DNA of 56,260 bases from an uncultured virus (IMG/VR IMGVR_UViG_3300006114_000006). Its lineage: Duplodnaviria > Heunggongvirae > Uroviricota > Caudoviricetes. Position numbers and translations under genes: made by a program. The stretch lies in IMG/VR virus record IMGVR_UViG_3300006114_000006; one strand, written 5' to 3'. The notes beneath the pieces are model-generated. The model worked only from the letters and a program-made list of their open reading frames with translations. It was not told the origin of the DNA and did not search any database. Positions within the stretch are counted from its first letter, which is position 1. The number at the start of each line of letters is the position of its first letter. Below, in pieces: positions 21,160 to 36,500 of the stretch.

Positions 21160-22671
21160 TTAAGCGTTATCTAGTGTTACTGAAACGTTAGCGGTCGGAG
21201 TTGTTAAATTCCATTGTGCCGCTTGTCCAGTAGTAAACTGTGTACCTGAAATTGGAGTTAAGTATGCCTTACGGTTTGTTAACTTAGATACAGCATAGAT
21301 ACCACCAGCACTGTCAGTAGCAATGATTGCCATTTGACCTGAAGTCAAACTGCTTTCAGCAACTGCTGTTAGCCTGCACAATGTACCTGGGAATGTACCA
21401 CCTTGTTGGATAACACGGAATGTACGTGAACCTTCTTGTTTGATGATGTCACAATCGGTATACAATGTTCCGCCAATGTTGGCGTTAGCAATAATCTGCT
21501 CGTAACGTCCTGTGTAACCACTTGTTACTTGAGCGGCTAATGTAGCTGTAGCTGTAGCTGAACCAGAACTTAATGTTACAACTGGAGTGTAACCAGCGAT
21601 TGTTACAGAATCACTTACAGTATAAGTGAATGTCAAACCAGTTGATGTTGAACCACCAACTGTTACAGTACCTGTACCGGCAAGAGCACCTGCTAGTGAT
21701 GTACTTAATGTAACTGCTGTAGTTGTTGGAGCAACTGCTGAGCTAACATAATATGTTGTACCGCTTGTTACACCTGTTAAGTTACCACTTAGTGTACCTG
21801 TTACTGCAATCGCTGTTCCTACTGGAAGAGCTGTTGTAGTTGCTGTATATGTTAACTGACCGGCTGTTTGGCTAACTGCGGCCAATGCGGCACTGTTAGG
21901 TTGTGATGTTGTTGATGCGGCTGTACCAACACCTGCGCCAGTAACTGAAGTACTTACTGTAACTACTTTAGTTGCTGTGTTAGCAGTTTTGATATAGTAA
22001 GCTGTACTACCTGTTAACCCACCGATTGATTGGCTTGGTGTAAATTTCATACCAACAATCATTTCATCAATCGAACTAACTGTAATGTTACCACTACCGT
22101 CAGTTGCTGTGATGCTCATAGTCTTAGTATCTGCAGAATCTAAATAACCATCACCACCGTTGTTAGTTAATGAATAACTTGTAATTGTGAATGATGTTAG
22201 TGTGAATGTAGCGGCCGATGTAAATGTACTACCAACTGCCGTTAAAGCTGTTGCACCTGATGTTGCGCCAGTCCATGTACCGCCAGAAGTTACTGAGTTA
22301 ACTGTTGTAATAACGCCAGAACCGTTTGTTGTAACGTTCAATACTGCTGTACCACCGCCTTGAGCACTTGTACCAGTTACTGAAACTGTAAATGTACTTG
22401 ATGCTGGATAACCTGTACCACCACTTGTTATGCTTGCGGCTGCGGCTGTTAAAACTGCAACTGCCGTAGCTTGTACACCGTTAGCAAGTTGTGGACCAAA
22501 GATTGATAAACTTGGAGCACCAGATGTATAACCTGTTAGTGTACCGCCTGTTGCAAGACTTGCAATATTTGAACCACCAATGCCGGCATCAACTGCGGCA
22601 GAGCGGCTATATGTACCTGATGCTGACGCATTACGTGAGCCAAAGTACTTTTTATTAAGAGGACGTCCCAT
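21160..22671 (-). CDS. Virion structural protein (503 aa, MGRPLNKKYFG N-terminus), probably highly expressed
   Basis: Strong TAAGGAG RBS, own TAAATA promoter and downstream hairpin; Thr/Ala/Gly-rich core with ..GG.GY and T.YY repeats; C-terminal IIKQEGSRTFRV...VSKLTNRKA domain. Confidence 0.75.
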   Translation of the reverse strand: MGRPLNKKYFGSRNASASGTYSRSAAVDAGIGGSNIASLATGGTLTGYTSGAPSLSIFGPQLANGVQATAVAVLTAAAASITSGGTGYPASSTFTVSVTGTSAQGGGTAVLNVTTNGSGVITTVNSVTSGGTWTGATSGATALTAVGSTFTSAATFTLTSFTITSYSLTNNGGDGYLDSADTKTMSITATDGSGNITVSSIDEMIVGMKFTPSQSIGGLTGSTAYYIKTANTATKVVTVSTSVTGAGVGTAASTTSQPNSAALAAVSQTAGQLTYTATTTALPVGTAIAVTGTLSGNLTGVTSGTTYYVSSAVAPTTTAVTLSTSLAGALAGTGTVTVGGSTSTGLTFTYTVSDSVTIAGYTPVVTLSSGSATATATLAAQVTSGYTGRYEQIIANANIGGTLYTDCDIIKQEGSRTFRVIQQGGTFPGTLCRLTAVAESSLTSGQMAIIATDSAGGIYAVSKLTNRKAYLTPISGTQFTTGQAAQWNLTTPTANVSVTLDNA

Positions 22672-22689
22672 TTTGTTTTCTCCTTATGA

Positions 22690-22761
22690 AAAACACGGCG
22701 TTCTAGGCCGTACGCAGTTGGATTTCTGCATAAAACTCACCCCATGTGAGTTGTTACTATG
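22690..22761 (-). ncRNA. Candidate three-hairpin 5' leader RNA
   Basis: Back-to-back stems at 22734-22752, 22711-22732 (U-G pair possible only on the minus strand) and 22695-22711, between TAAATA and the RBS. Confidence 0.55.
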
Positions 22762-31583: not shown

Positions 31584-32408
31584 ATGGCAGAAAACAACCC
31601 TTTACAGCAATACTTTAGACAACCAAAAATATTTGTAGATTTACCTTCTAAAGGGATCTATAATAAGCCCGGTTCTTTAAACAAACACAGTAATCTAGCT
31701 GTATATGGATTAACCGGCATGGATGAAATCATTTTAAAGACACCTGATGCTTTACTGTCAGGCGAAGCAATTACACGAACTGTTAAAAGTTGTTGTCCAG
31801 ATATTACAGATCCTTATGAATTACCCAGTATGGATATAGAAATGCTAGTGGTGGCTATTAGAGTAGCAACCTATGGCAATAGTATATCACTGACCCATAC
31901 ATGTAAAAAATGTCAATCAGAAAATGATTATGATGCAGATTTAGGAATTATTTTAGAACATTATAAACATGCGTCATTCTCTAACAAAATCAAAGAAGAT
32001 GAAATTGTTATAAATGTAAGACCGTTATCATACAAAGAATCAAACAAATTCAACATAGAAACTTTTAACCTTCAAAGAAGATTATTTCAAATAAACAATG
32101 TTCCAGAAGCTGATCAAGAAGGATTCTTGCGTGAAATATATGAATCGCTTGGAGTAATACAAACAAACATGATGTTTGAAAGCATTGAAAGCATTGAATT
32201 ACCTGACACTGTGGTAGTTGAAAGAGAATTCATTAAAGAATTTGTAGAGAAATGTGACCGAGCTGTTTTTCAATCACTTAAAACACAGTTTGAAAATAAT
32301 ATTAAAAATATGAAGTATCCAGATATTGATATAGTTTGCTCTTCTTGCGATACAGCTGACAAAATTTTATTGGAGTTAAATCAGACAAATTTTTTCGTTG
32401 GCGCCTAA
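31584..32408 (+). CDS. gp26: Baseplate hub assembly protein, gp26-like
   Basis: NPLQQYFRQPKIFVDLPSKG, DEIILKTPDALLSG, DIEMLVVAIRVATYG, two CxxC motifs (CKKC, CSSC), C-terminal NFF. Confidence 0.7.
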   Translation: MAENNPLQQYFRQPKIFVDLPSKGIYNKPGSLNKHSNLAVYGLTGMDEIILKTPDALLSGEAITRTVKSCCPDITDPYELPSMDIEMLVVAIRVATYGNSISLTHTCKKCQSENDYDADLGIILEHYKHASFSNKIKEDEIVINVRPLSYKESNKFNIETFNLQRRLFQINNVPEADQEGFLREIYESLGVIQTNMMFESIESIELPDTVVVEREFIKEFVEKCDRAVFQSLKTQFENNIKNMKYPDIDIVCSSCDTADKILLELNQTNFFVGA

Positions 32409-32413
32409 CAAAG

Positions 32414-32629
32414 ATGACTAACGAAGATATTAAAGATTATCTTGTTAGGCTAGAAAAAGAAGTTTTAGATTTTAAAGAAGAATTATTTAGAATAAGTTGG
32501 TTCATGCGTGGTGGAGTGAATATAAACGATTTATTTCACACGTACAGTCATGAAGATATCAAGTTGATTTCAGAAATAATTAAGGGTAATACAGAAGCTA
32601 CTAAGAATTCAGGCCTGCCACTGATTTAA
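32414..32629 (+). CDS. Small baseplate hub assembly protein, gp51-like (71 aa)
   Basis: Follows the gp26-like gene; ISWFMRGGVN motif; call rests mainly on size and synteny. Confidence 0.55.
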   Translation: MTNEDIKDYLVRLEKEVLDFKEELFRISWFMRGGVNINDLFHTYSHEDIKLISEIIKGNTEATKNSGLPLI

Positions 32630-33510
32630 TTCTTTTGCCAAGGATTTCCGTATTTTTTAGCAAACGCATTGTCTGATGTATAGTTGGCAGGATCATGTAA
32701 TAGTTTATCCGTGTCAAGACCATTGCCCGAAGCTGAAGTAGCGTTGATTGATGCATTAGGAGTTGAACTGCCAGCTGTAGTATCTTTACTGTTAGAACTT
32801 GTGGCATCTACACCCAATGCTGTGCCAGCAGTGCCTGCCAAACCGTTAAGTTTGTTTGAAATTTTATCGCCGATATCGCCAGGTCCTAATTTCTTATCGT
32901 ATCCAGCTTGGCCTTTGCTACTTAAGTCTTTTAGTTTGCCAGCAAATGTGCCTGGTCCTAAATCCCATAATACTTTTACACCTGGATCGACCAAGTGTAG
33001 TACAACATAGGCCACGCATTGTTGACCTTCTTTGGTAGCTAGCCATTTTTGCAAATACAATGCCGCGGCTTCTTGAGCCAACAATAAAGCAATACTTTCT
33101 GGAGCAAGTATGCCCCCGGTAAAAATACCAGCGGCAGTTCCAACTACGCCAGTTGCAATTCTACCAACTAAAAATATTCTAAAGAAAAATTGAATAACAC
33201 GCAGTATAGCACCGCTTGCTATCATAGACACCACCATCTTTTCAGCTTCAAGACGCATGGCCACAGGATAGTCTTCTTTTTCTAGCTCTCCAGCTTGAAT
33301 CATCTTTTCAATGACCATTCTGTGTTGCATGAACTGATAGATAAAAGTGGCAAGATTCAAATACTTGATGATTTTTAAATAACCACCAAGAACTTTTTCT
33401 GTTTTAAGTGTAACAGCTTTGCCGGAAATAGGTGTAGTACTGGCAAATTTATCAATAGCTGCCAATATACTACTGCCAGTTCCTTCTGAGATTATTTCAT
33501 AAACTTTCAT
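32626..33510 (-). CDS. Late hypothetical protein with hydrophobic helices (294 aa); possible internal head protein
   Basis: TAAATA (33529-33534) and AGGA upstream; N-terminus MKVYEIISE; hydrophobic central segments; low-complexity C-terminus. Confidence 0.7.
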   Translation of the reverse strand: MKVYEIISEGTGSSILAAIDKFASTTPISGKAVTLKTEKVLGGYLKIIKYLNLATFIYQFMQHRMVIEKMIQAGELEKEDYPVAMRLEAEKMVVSMIASGAILRVIQFFFRIFLVGRIATGVVGTAAGIFTGGILAPESIALLLAQEAAALYLQKWLATKEGQQCVAYVVLHLVDPGVKVLWDLGPGTFAGKLKDLSSKGQAGYDKKLGPGDIGDKISNKLNGLAGTAGTALGVDATSSNSKDTTAGSSTPNASINATSASGNGLDTDKLLHDPANYTSDNAFAKKYGNPWQKN

Positions 33511-33528: not shown

Positions 33529-33534
33529 TATTTA
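33529..33534 (-). promoter_or_regulatory. Late promoter core TAAATA
   Basis: GATAAATA 19 nt upstream of ATG 33510. Confidence 0.6.
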
Positions 33535-33544
33535 TCAAGTCATT

Positions 33545-34003
33545 TAAGAAGAACTTGCGTTCTTCTATTCTTCGCTTTCGCTCGAACTATTAAGGATTAG
33601 TTAACAACACTTATAACGCGAAGCGTTTAAGATATTATCCAGATCGTTCAGTCACACTTTGCCCTGGCGGGCAAAATGACAAACATTATCCGAGTCGAAC
33701 ATGCTCACTCTTACGTTTTGGCATTACAGTGGCGGTCATCCGGTACCACGAGCCAAGTCTTTATATGACGGCAGTCTAATAAACAACGTAAAACGTTTAT
33801 TAAACCCGAGGTTTCTCTCCTCTCTTTTAGCCTGTAAAATATATTTTCTTGCTGATCAAACGGGTTTATTCATAGGCATATCCCATCCGCGTCCTGTAAA
33901 GGATAGTGATCCAGCTACTCTGCGCCAAGCAGAGATTCCTTGCCGCCACACATCAGAGCGGATTCAGGGCACAATACTATCGCCTGTGCGGGCTTATTTG
34001 GCG
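33545..34003 (-). ncRNA. Large structured non-coding element (~460 nt), unassigned family; strand inferred
   Basis: Longest gap between credible genes in the window, visibly GC-richer than other intergenic DNA, with at least 9 local hairpins and several nested long-range complementarities (detailed in findings). Confidence 0.6.
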
Positions 34004-34447
34004 TTATTTTGCCTGGTTTTCTTGAAGTTTGCGAATATGCGAACCATGTACACGCACTTGAATATGACCATTATAATAGTCATTTGATTCTAAAACTCTG
34101 CGTGAAAATTGTTCTCTAGCCTCTATATAACTGCATTCTGCCTTGCTTCGACAGAGAAACAGTATCTCTCTTGTAAAATTTTCTGTGCCTAATGCCGTAA
34201 CATCCTTGCTTAATTCTGGGCTTGAACCATAATATTCCCGCCAGTCTGAGTCAATTTTGCTACGAATTTTCTTTTTTTTCTTGTTGCCGTTCTTTAATTT
34301 TACTGTCTTGTATGTGGTTTTTGAGAATTTAGCTAGTTTTTTGCCTATGTACATGCGACCGTTAGTAGTGTTTGTTATGATATAAACAAATCCTATACAG
34401 TCTTCTGGTAGTGTTTCTATTGGTTGAGATTGATAAGTCCAAGACAT
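34004..34447 (-). CDS. Short GIY-YIG-family (SegE-like) nuclease-domain protein (147 aa)
   Basis: GFVYIITNTTNGRMYIGKK, SDWREYYGSS, NFTREIL, YIEAREQF, YYNG; Lys-rich insert; no C-terminal DNA-binding domains. Confidence 0.85.
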   Translation of the reverse strand: MSWTYQSQPIETLPEDCIGFVYIITNTTNGRMYIGKKLAKFSKTTYKTVKLKNGNKKKKKIRSKIDSDWREYYGSSPELSKDVTALGTENFTREILFLCRSKAECSYIEAREQFSRRVLESNDYYNGHIQVRVHGSHIRKLQENQAK

Positions 34448-34729: not shown

Positions 34730-36500
34730 GTATCTCTAAATCGTTTGCATAGCTGGTAAAACCGTTTTCTTTGATAACTCTCAGTACATTGTTTACACGG
34801 CCTATCAGCTCTTCCTTGTGACTGATCAAGAATATGTTTTTCTTGCGTTCACGACCCATCTTTTTCAGTATGCCCAGGGCACCTTCTACTCCTGAAGGAT
34901 CTAGTCCGTTGTCTATGAGCTCGTCAACAAACAGCAAATTAATACTTTGATATAGACTTTCCCATACATCACGGAAAGCCCACGACAAGCCCAGTATGAG
35001 TCTATTGCGTTCGCCTCGACTTAGATTATCAAAATCTAAATCTTGCCCCAGCTGTGTGATTAAGACCGTCAAGTCGTTTTGGAATGTAACTGTGTGTGGT
35101 AACCCCAGCTTGTCCAAGTAATAGGTCAAGCGATTGTTTAAGTATGCTAGGTTTTGATCTATAATCTTTTTGCGAATAAATGAATCTTTTGATGTCAGCA
35201 ATTTCAACAAGAACTCTTGATGATCCTTCAAGCGAGTCAGCTCATTGACCAAGTCCCAAGAAATTTCCTGCATGGCAGTCATACGCAGTTCTTCAATTTG
35301 CTCTTGATACGGATCAGTTTCACCCGCTTTGATAGTCAACTGTGTTTCAAGAGTTTTTAAGTTGTTTTGATGTTTAAGAGTCTGCTCCACGCTGTCATAG
35401 TACGTTGAAGGACGTTGAGTCAGCTCACCCAGGGTAGCAATTTCGGCTTGTATTTTTGACAAATCCTTAGTGACCTTGTCGAAATACTTTCGGGCCTCGT
35501 CAAGGTGCCCTTGTGCTGTTGATGTCATTTCTTCATGCTTGTGATCATGTAGCTCTTGTTCACATGCGTGACAGGTCTTGTTAGCCAACTTGACGAGCTC
35601 GCCGTCGTACTTCGTGACGCTTCGCTCCGCTTGTGCTATCGCACTTTCGAGCGTTGCACGCTCTTTATTTAGGCTTTTCAGCTTCGCTGACTTCTCGTCA
35701 TACACTTTGAGCTCCGCATGCTTCGCAAGCTCAGCGTCAATATCTACGTCCTCCAATTCGACAATGGCTCTGCCCATCTTTTCTAGCTCTTGAGTATGTT
35801 GATTACCCCAAGCCATTTGTTTGGTTAGCAAACTATCAATACTTAATTGTATTTTTTCGTTGCTTTTCTTTGTAGCTTCGAGATTGGCAGTCTCTTGTGT
35901 AATAGCATCTTTAGTTTCTTTAACTTGTTCTTTAAGAGTTTCTGCTTTTTCACTTAGTAATGTAATACCCAACAACTGTTCAATGATAGCACGTTGGTCG
36001 TTAGCCCGCATACTTAAGAAAGGTTCTGTATAAGTGTTAAGAGCAACAATATGTTTGAACATATCGTGGCTCATGCCCAGCAAGTCATCTAAGTCCTTCT
36101 GGGTTTCACGCATATCTCCTTGAGCATCGTCTGTTTCGTCTGTTTCTTGCTCTTGGTCATCAATAAAAAACTTTAATATGTTAGGTTTACGCCCACGTTC
36201 TATACGATAGAGAACACCATTTTTTTCAAATGTAAGTGTAACCAACATACCTTTGGCGTTAATCTTATTGATAAGATTATCTTTTTTAATGTTAGTGAGT
36301 GCAATACCGTAAAGTGCATAACTTAAAGCATTTACAATGGTTGTCTTACCTGTACCGTTACGACTTCCGCTATCATCACCGCCTTGATCTAAATTCTCAC
36401 CTAATACGAGTGTTAAATTTTCTTTACCAAAGTCTACAGCTTGAGTCTGGTTGCCCACACTCATGAAGTTACGTACTGTTAGTTCTTTTATTATAATCAT
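34722..36500 (-). CDS. gp46: Recombination exonuclease ATPase subunit, gp46/SbcC/Rad50-like
   Basis: Walker A NGTGKTT, coiled coils with a CHAC zinc hook, signature LSRGE, Walker B LLFVDE, ISH switch. Confidence 0.95.
   Translation of the reverse strand: MIIIKELTVRNFMSVGNQTQAVDFGKENLTLVLGENLDQGGDDSGSRNGTGKTTIVNALSYALYGIALTNIKKDNLINKINAKGMLVTLTFEKNGVLYRIERGRKPNILKFFIDDQEQETDETDDAQGDMRETQKDLDDLLGMSHDMFKHIVALNTYTEPFLSMRANDQRAIIEQLLGITLLSEKAETLKEQVKETKDAITQETANLEATKKSNEKIQLSIDSLLTKQMAWGNQHTQELEKMGRAIVELEDVDIDAELAKHAELKVYDEKSAKLKSLNKERATLESAIAQAERSVTKYDGELVKLANKTCHACEQELHDHKHEEMTSTAQGHLDEARKYFDKVTKDLSKIQAEIATLGELTQRPSTYYDSVEQTLKHQNNLKTLETQLTIKAGETDPYQEQIEELRMTAMQEISWDLVNELTRLKDHQEFLLKLLTSKDSFIRKKIIDQNLAYLNNRLTYYLDKLGLPHTVTFQNDLTVLITQLGQDLDFDNLSRGERNRLILGLSWAFRDVWESLYQSINLLFVDELIDNGLDPSGVEGALGILKKMGRERKKNIFLISHKEELIGRVNNVLRVIKENGFTSYANDLEIHE

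Follow-up and report, generated by a model that had tools for sequence, protein, structure and literature searches.

Which described systems come closest to a large structured RNA beside a small phage nuclease gene? In ColE1, base pairing between an rG stretch of the RNA and a dC stretch on the template strand is required (PMC4412123); RNA II forms a persistent hybrid, and the helicase is loaded on the displaced strand (PMC5043065, PMC4412123). In the account given in PMC4412123, T4 origins appear as a promoter plus an unwinding element, without a folded RNA. The motifs GCGAAAGC and GCGTTAGC have been reported for the G4, St-1, and alpha3 primase origins, and such motifs are described as DNA mini-hairpins that are less stable as RNA (PMC13037366). 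Ssn nucleases cut neighbouring ssDNA hairpins (PMC11893778). Finally, the RNA motif Polynucleobacter-1 is entered in the Weinberg 2010 table as probably cis-regulatory, with the taxa given as 'Burkholderiales, fresh water/estuary' (PMC2864571).

The element at the locus described here is real and more elaborate than first described, and its 5' third is already known. Tentatively, and with a probability somewhat short of even, the element is read as a cis-acting origin, resembling that of ColE1, at which transcription would prime replication in large uncultured phages related to T4.

Gene Neighbourhood

The stretch of DNA analysed (the window, 56,260 nt) is part of a 153,700-base virus record that is 42% complete. 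The gene order is late sigma factor, gp47, gp46, an 89-aa gene, the GIY-YIG gene, a gap, and a 294-aa gene, with the names gp46 and gp47 assigned from the sequence. A gp26-like hub gene (31584-32629, plus strand, followed by a 71-aa ORF) faces the operon from the other side of the gap. An earlier note on this DNA had described a 147-aa GIY-YIG ORF at 34004-34447 on the minus strand and a gap after it; both are present as described, the gap reaching down to the ATG at 33510. The gap is the largest intergenic one in the 153.7-kb record, and the genes flanking it are uninterrupted ORFs. The features of the locus are as follows.

34004..34447, minus strand: stand-alone SegE-family GIY-YIG nuclease, 147 aa (PF19835, fold model)
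33849..34002, minus strand: 5' RNA domain, Polynucleobacter-1 (Rfam and covariation)
33776..33803, minus strand: long hairpin, its loop 33792-33786 pairing with 33710-33716 as pseudoknot 1 (covariation)
33710..33772, minus strand: most conserved core, two nested helices and pseudoknot 2 (covariation)
33685..33695, minus strand: repeat r1, ACTC plus a 7-mer (7-mer identity with r2, concerted change)
33658..33675, minus strand: GC-rich hairpin between r1 and r2, then a TGAC motif (all four RNA types)
33634..33644, minus strand: repeat r2, ATCT plus the same 7-mer (identity with r1; putative DNA site)
33615..33628, plus (template) strand: mini-hairpin D1, GCGAAGC at 33618-33624 (motif in homologues)
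33588..33614, unstranded: variable AT-rich spacer (alignments; putative role in unwinding)
33568..33587, minus strand: hairpin D2, tandem G-A pairs, cap GCGAAAGC at 33581-33574 (motif in homologues)
33547..33566, minus strand: terminal hairpin D3, in homologues chiefly with C(GNA)G triloops (loop counts)
33529..33534, minus strand: T4-late-promoter-like TAAATA motif (found in 86 of the 153 loci listed, 90-260 nt past r1)

A conserved small protein in the gap was considered and rejected: of 91 homologues, only 4 have an ORF of at least 60 aa in sense and 15 in antisense. ARAGORN and Rfam gave no tRNA or tmRNA in the element; Rfam matched no group I intron or known ribozyme there, and other families gave only sub-threshold chance matches. 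The TAAATA motif, which resembles the T4 late promoter consensus, probably serves the next gene. Elsewhere in the window, Rfam freshwater-2 (RF02980, 75 bits) is matched at 22669-22751 on the minus strand, after a TAAATA motif and directly upstream of a 503-aa structural-looking gene.

How is the element transcribed? The claim that no terminator separates the ORF from the element agrees with the search, which found no terminator-like site between them, and promoter-like sites above shuffle level are likewise absent from that interval. Because both are lacking, co-transcription with the gp47/gp46 operon, which the earlier note had proposed as co-expression, is most likely.

A Pseudoknotted RNA Larger than Polynucleobacter-1

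The minus strand folds with z = -3.39 (none of 100 shuffles as good) and the plus strand with z = -2.39 (1 of 100). A large conserved RNA on the minus strand, as first suggested, is borne out by covariation among 91 non-redundant homologues of the window-like type A, in which covarying pairs span 34002 to 33549. The covarying RNA is about 320-370 nt long and has three pseudoknots. The covarying set comprises a 5' pseudoknot, the junction of the Rfam model, a long hairpin with a loop that finds its partner 70 nt downstream, and, in the core, a second helix that crosses.

In the earlier note, the RNA was left without a family. The Rfam search corrects this, placing 33849-33994 on the minus strand in Polynucleobacter-1 (RF01718) as a full-length member of 146 nt (model positions 1-141 of 141; score 69.5 bits, gathering threshold 37), and the family was also matched in 13 of 20 related loci tested. 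The model is too short for the whole RNA. Its 141 positions make up about a third of the element, without the three pseudoknots, the repeats, or the 3' module, and covariation runs ~300 nt further 3'. Whereas the taxa in the table of PMC2864571 are bacterial or environmental, Polynucleobacter-1 here belongs to a phage element.

All seven local stems that had been listed can be read out of the sequence. The three long-range pairs proposed with them are present in the window but are not conserved, with 0.22-0.54 of cells pairing in 90 homologues; the local helices that compete with them pair in 0.88-1.0 of cells, and the long-range pairs that are conserved are different ones. The extra 5' pseudoknot, which the Rfam model lacks, joins 34002-33998 with 33924-33928. 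The nested helices of the core are 33755-33752/33719-33722 and 33749-33746/33729-33732, and pseudoknot 2 crosses them at 33769-33766/33735-33738. In a 30-sequence subset, the share of pairing cells is 91.3% (shuffles: 74.2%), and both sides have changed in 26 of the 36 pairs; this is a confirmation and not an independent test, because the structure was derived from overlapping data. In 30 sequences, compensatory changes are seen in 10/10 pairs of the long hairpin and 7/7 of pseudoknot 1.

Which strand and which nucleic acid do these helices reflect? For the part of the helices included in the count, G-U stands against A-C at 0.171 to 0.007 in the long hairpin with pseudoknot 1, and the 5' and core helices together give 0.171/0.007, 0.169/0.012, and 0.149/0.009. 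The excess of G-U points to RNA with the sequence of the minus strand.

Four types of this RNA (A, B, C, and D) differ in their 5' halves and have a common 3' architecture. In types B, C, and D, the 5' domain is exchanged for other domains that have no Rfam match, and the 3' module is kept beneath them. The RNA types number at least four and are exchangeable.

The element is found in a defined genomic position. A nucleotide profile matches 79 of 80 loci, taken as the best 80 of 585 confirmed protein relatives, although the figure is partly circular, the profile having been built from 61 of the same 80 sequences; the one exception has no downstream DNA. The profile matches the home record once. 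Each record searched has one copy, in most loci in the slot between gp46 and gp26, and records G000 and G004 hold no extra copies of the unit. Among cultured phages, blastn gave no match for types A, B, C, or D. Bacterial genomes gave eight pattern matches, all on MAG contigs (six with an adjoining GIY-YIG gene, two truncated), and these are read as binned phage DNA. Six loci with pattern matches and no profile match (L127, L139, L150, L177, L185, and L187) were set aside as chance.

Across loci L001-L160, the gp46-gp26 interval is a hot spot of inserted genes on both sides of the nuclease-RNA block, the inserts being radical-SAM-like, methyltransferase-like, and deaminase-like by eye. L097 has a type B RNA in another setting: the gene before it looks MazG-like, and four 10-nt repeats in tandem precede the RNA.

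Twin Repeats That Change Together

The two repeats of the element, r1 and r2, are spaced 47-60 nt apart. Of 120 sequences, 119 have the same 7-mer in both repeats, in nine variants (four more sequences were not parsed), and so do 279 of 283 homologues of a later, larger set; the search pattern set the shape of the repeats and not their identity, except for 80 loci with both repeats fixed. Matching variants were also found in type D, in a scan that selected for repeats. When the variable positions are followed over a tree of 156 nuclease genes, r1 and r2 almost always change together: for the four positions, the Fitch counts in r1, in r2, and jointly are 32/31/32, 9/9/9, 14/14/14, and 20/21/22. 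Normalised MI between r1 and r2 is 0.92-1.0; that of the repeats with columns of the GIY-YIG gene is at most 0.31, and with other RNA columns at most 0.52 (two of four RNA columns).

What could hold the two repeats in step? Neither the RNA nor the nuclease gene nor the flanking DNA offers them a Watson-Crick partner, no complementary copy recurs within about 3 kb in the 196 loci listed, and no consistent recurrence of the repeats was found elsewhere in two genomes examined. The simplest complement shared by r1 and r2 would be the element's own template DNA strand, and a template strand complementary to both would explain their identity without an RNA partner. In local folds, r1 shows a mean unpaired value of 0.28-0.72, with no clear unpairing.

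Alternatively, the repeats might be equivalent sites for a dimeric protein, or for two nucleic-acid copies, on a large ncRNA that acts in trans as a scaffold, sponge, or structural RNA, with the 3' hairpins ending and protecting the transcript. The covariation with its three pseudoknots goes beyond the obvious needs of a primer, and both the variable spacing of the repeats and a TGAC-like motif before each of them are in keeping with such an RNA. However, a partner protein would need dozens of in-step specificity switches, including switches between relatives as close as L076 and L079, which are 3 aa apart; no partner protein was found, and the loops of the 3' hairpins are of DNA type on either strand. 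A trans-acting RNA is unlikely on this evidence.

Template jumps, such as those of DRT2 and telomerase, need identical donor and acceptor sites, a requirement that identical r1 and r2 would fit. It is extremely improbable, though, that the element is a reverse-transcriptase template RNA on which r1 and r2 serve for template jumps, or a ribozyme for which they are two equivalent sites: RVT_1, the only family searched, is present in none of six records (G000 and five related, two of them at least 99% complete), the extra copies looked for in G000 and G004 are missing, and no ribozyme family was matched in Rfam.

DNA-Type Hairpins at the 3' End

In the 3' 90 nt of the element, mini-hairpins of DNA type, some on one strand and some on the other, surround an AT-rich stretch. 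In 74 of 114 homologues, D1 has the form C-TTC-G, which reads C-GAA-G on the other strand, and the spacer at 33588-33614 is a candidate unwinding element. The D2 motif is present in 109 of the 114, with tandem G-A pairs under GNA or GNNA loops; GCGAAAGC and GCGTTAGC are both found in it, and the form GAGCG-N1-2-AGCGA occurs once in the whole 153.7-kb record. The loops of D3 are C(GTA)G in 47, C(GCA)G in 14, and C(GAA)G in 4 homologues, so that C(GNA)G accounts for 65 of 114, and this hairpin is free of G-U bias (G-U 0.041 vs. A-C 0.038). Standard folding parameters miss the stability of DNA mini-hairpins.

The priming signals of G4, St-1, alpha3, and ssiA, as reported in PMC13037366, contain the same GCGAAAGC, GCGTTAGC, and C(GNA)G motifs. 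In contrast to those signals, the hairpins described here belong to a dsDNA phage, occupy both strands, and lie behind a large RNA, and their words also occur elsewhere in the genomes: GCGAAGC is found 9 times in G000 and 25 times in G004. Five GCG-N1-2-AGC mini-hairpin words are clustered inside gp46 (35624-35726, minus strand), 1.7 kb upstream of the element, and possibly belong to the same signal system.

Do the hairpins merely end transcription? The element might be a cis-regulatory 3' element or a bidirectional terminator between the replication operon and convergent late genes. The listing of the motif as probably cis-regulatory in the table of PMC2864571 favours this, as do the convergent genes that follow in many loci and the A-rich runs before D2. 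By contrast, the downstream genes vary in family and strand, a terminator search made no call within the element, the tandem G-A pairs of D2 favour one strand, and the identity of the repeats would have no explanation. A regulatory or terminator role is very unlikely.

The Adjacent Nuclease

The protein encoded next to the RNA matches Pfam PF19835 (1e-34; 119.8 bits against a cut-off of 25) and is phrog_447, which carries the label 'NAD synthetase' in PHROGs and in many phage records. Pfam and the fold both disagree with this label, and the protein is mislabelled. The best fold match of a predicted model with a pLDDT of 96.3 is the I-TevI catalytic domain (Z 7.8, rmsd 2.6, 82 aligned); a single-sequence fold model (pLDDT 43) was rejected, and Foldseek and PDB sequence searches gave nothing significant. 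K37, E109, and N126 are invariant in 106 sequences. The protein has its fold and the positions of the invariant Tyr, Glu, and Asn in common with the I-TevI catalytic domain and T4 endonuclease II. Unlike I-TevI, it has no appended DNA-binding domain, and a beta-hairpin modelled at residues 40-66 replaces the first (Arg) helix. This hairpin is the basic insert to which attention had been drawn; the insert is there, but it is a family trait, and homologues without adjacent RNA have it too. The SegE family is widespread in T4-like and Felix-like phages (429 records) and is no sporadic homing gene.

What might the nuclease do? PF19835 is found in none of five partial and two complete resolvase records. 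Conversely, the phrog_244 resolvase is found in 0/10 GIY-YIG records and Endo VII above cut-off in 0/9 (the T4 control was positive, and phiN3 gave one sub-threshold match), and RuvC is found in 0/11 records. In the tested records, several of which are partial, the GIY-YIG protein and the known resolvases searched (phrog_244, Endo VII, and RuvC) thus exclude each other, which suggests branched-DNA resolution. Judged from sequence, it is on balance probable that the GIY-YIG protein is an operon neighbour of the RNA, a predicted branched-DNA nuclease that stands in for a Holliday-junction resolvase.

Is the RNA Tied to the Nuclease?

The earlier note had proposed a GIY-YIG ribonucleoprotein, in which the RNA would scaffold or guide the nuclease; on such a reading, r1 could guide it to its own locus. 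The adjacency of the two is strong. The gene adjoins the RNA in 79 of 80 protein-selected loci and, among the matches listed, precedes it in 65/67 and 59/65 RNA-selected loci with enough upstream DNA. A clade at about 60% identity retains the adjacency, inserted genes are found more often upstream of the nuclease gene than between it and the RNA (where unrelated genes occur in 8/65 of the matches listed), and the basic beta-hairpin of the predicted model also favours an RNA partner.

However, the RNA occurs without GIY-YIG, and identical proteins occur with different RNA types: the proteins of L063 and L064 are identical, yet one locus has type B and the other type C RNA, the types swapping at the nuclease stop codon. 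The neighbour of the element in L160, L363, and L371 is a phrog_244 resolvase, and in L324, L336, L382, and L386 there are other upstream neighbours. Loci of the phrog_244 resolvase have a GIY-YIG gene within 2.5 kb in 0/38 cases; the repeat-hairpin module is present in 17 of 20 distinct phrog_244 loci with enough DNA, and the resolvase locus L434 has RF01718 itself at 63 bits. Five cultured phages with homologues of 30-54% identity show neither the gap nor an element match (0/5). No residue of the GIY-YIG protein tracks the repeats, and no guide-like hypervariable segment with a match elsewhere was found within 3 kb in the loci listed or consistently in two genomes. The presence of the RNA behind an unrelated resolvase, together with GIY-YIG homologues that lack the RNA, indicates that the RNA belongs to the genomic slot and not to the protein. 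The earlier note had itself named a clear Rfam match and an element without a GIY-YIG gene as findings that would speak against its proposal, and both were obtained. An RNA-guided GIY-YIG is unlikely, and the ribonucleoprotein as a whole is highly improbable. OMEGA systems (IscB and TnpB with omega-RNA) likewise have a small nuclease gene beside a large structured RNA; unlike them, the locus described here has no obligate linkage, no variable guide that could be found, a fixed single genomic slot, and a different fold.

Could the element be a site for the cutting of DNA? In a cis recombination, resolution, or packaging site, slipped r1-r2 pairing and the hairpins would form branched DNA, to be cut by the adjacent nuclease (GIY-YIG or resolvase) and gp46/47. 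With few exceptions, a small nuclease adjoins the element, its fold being one of two that are unrelated, and the swapping of RNA types at its stop codon would fit such a site. Contig ends are also concentrated in the element (in 160 protein-selected loci, 34 lie within 600 nt downstream and 5 upstream), which indicates that assemblies are often broken there. Ssn nucleases provide a precedent, being minimal GIY-YIG proteins beside DNA hairpins (PMC11893778), although they are of a different family from the one described here, and in the present case there are no dispersed hairpin repeats and no co-variation with the protein. Against a recombination site, the RNA pseudoknots with their G-U bias are left unexplained, the contig ends are spread out, as expected of assembly breaks at a conserved sequence, and some copies have no nuclease nearby. 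Such a site is quite unlikely.

A Possible Transcription-Primed Origin

How would a transcription-primed origin operate at this locus? Read-through from the gp47/gp46 operon would make the RNA, whose fold would present r1, and r1 would then pair with the template DNA strand at r2. This pairing may seed a persistent R-loop that opens the AT-rich stretch, so that the mini-hairpins on the exposed strands could load primase or helicase. Several observations are consistent with an origin: the concerted changes of r1 and r2 without a recurrent complementary copy within about 3 kb, the G-U bias that is seen in the RNA helices and is missing from D3, the presence in D2 of both GCGAAAGC and GCGTTAGC of phage primase origins, and the exchange of whole RNA types behind identical proteins. 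As would be expected of an origin, the predicted folded transcript leads into an AT-rich region with priming-type hairpins.

Like ColE1 RNA II and T4 oriF and oriG, the proposed origin would have a long folded transcript running into the origin region, and, like RNA II as far as described in the sources cited above, it would use RNA-template pairing and loading sites on the displaced strand. It differs from ColE1 in its mixed-sequence 7-mers, which contain no G-run, and no sequence similarity is claimed; neither an antisense RNA I nor a promoter of its own was seen. RNase HI (PF00075) was not found in the three records G000, G003, and G004, which are of the same clade, and this counts against the origin. 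So do the 7-11 nt match, which is short for seeding a hybrid, the absence of clear unpairing of r1 in local folds, the four loci with other upstream neighbours, and the T4 origins, which are described without a folded RNA. Strand skew is uninformative on this point: no origin signal emerges, skew follows gene strand, and the residual T-A extremes near the slot in PA5oct and G004 are of opposite sign.

In the cultured phages PA5oct and Phosso, the resolvase of this slot is followed by a long stretch poor in ORFs, which speaks for the origin, but the analogy is positional only, because neither region matches any of five nhmmer profiles. Both regions (L473:8410-9425 in Phosso and L472:8020-9530 in PA5oct) are hairpin-rich and reach from the resolvase to gp26. 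That of Phosso contains two 11-nt direct repeats 66 nt apart and has RNase HI next door; that of PA5oct has a motif like type B by eye. The four annotated ncRNAs of PA5oct were considered as counterparts and rejected, since all of them, according to PMC7318152, lie elsewhere.

A more specific form of the origin reading is a family of 'initiator RNAs' widespread among phages, multi-pseudoknot RNAs in which an internal guide, r1, invades the RNA's own downstream DNA at r2 and thereby specifies the origin. This is possible, though on the unlikely side.

Implications

An orphan Rfam motif of 2010 becomes the first third, at the 5' end, of a phage element that is far larger and comes in four or more exchangeable types, and the two repeats that change only together place a sharp constraint on any account of its function. 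Neither the extension nor the exchangeable types nor the concerted repeats turned up in the literature searched on Polynucleobacter-1, a motif named in one paper, or on GIY-YIG proteins with phage ncRNA or structured RNA; this search covered material other than the gene-context and discussion supplements of PMC2864571, which may bear on novelty. For a very common phage protein mislabelled as 'NAD synthetase', junction resolution is suggested as its job. For origin choice in large T4-related phages, the element is a single-copy candidate. If the initiator-RNA reading is true, the exchangeable RNA types would be incompatibility groups, and these phages would have an RNA-programmed form of origin recognition that could be reprogrammed by a joint change of r1 and r2.
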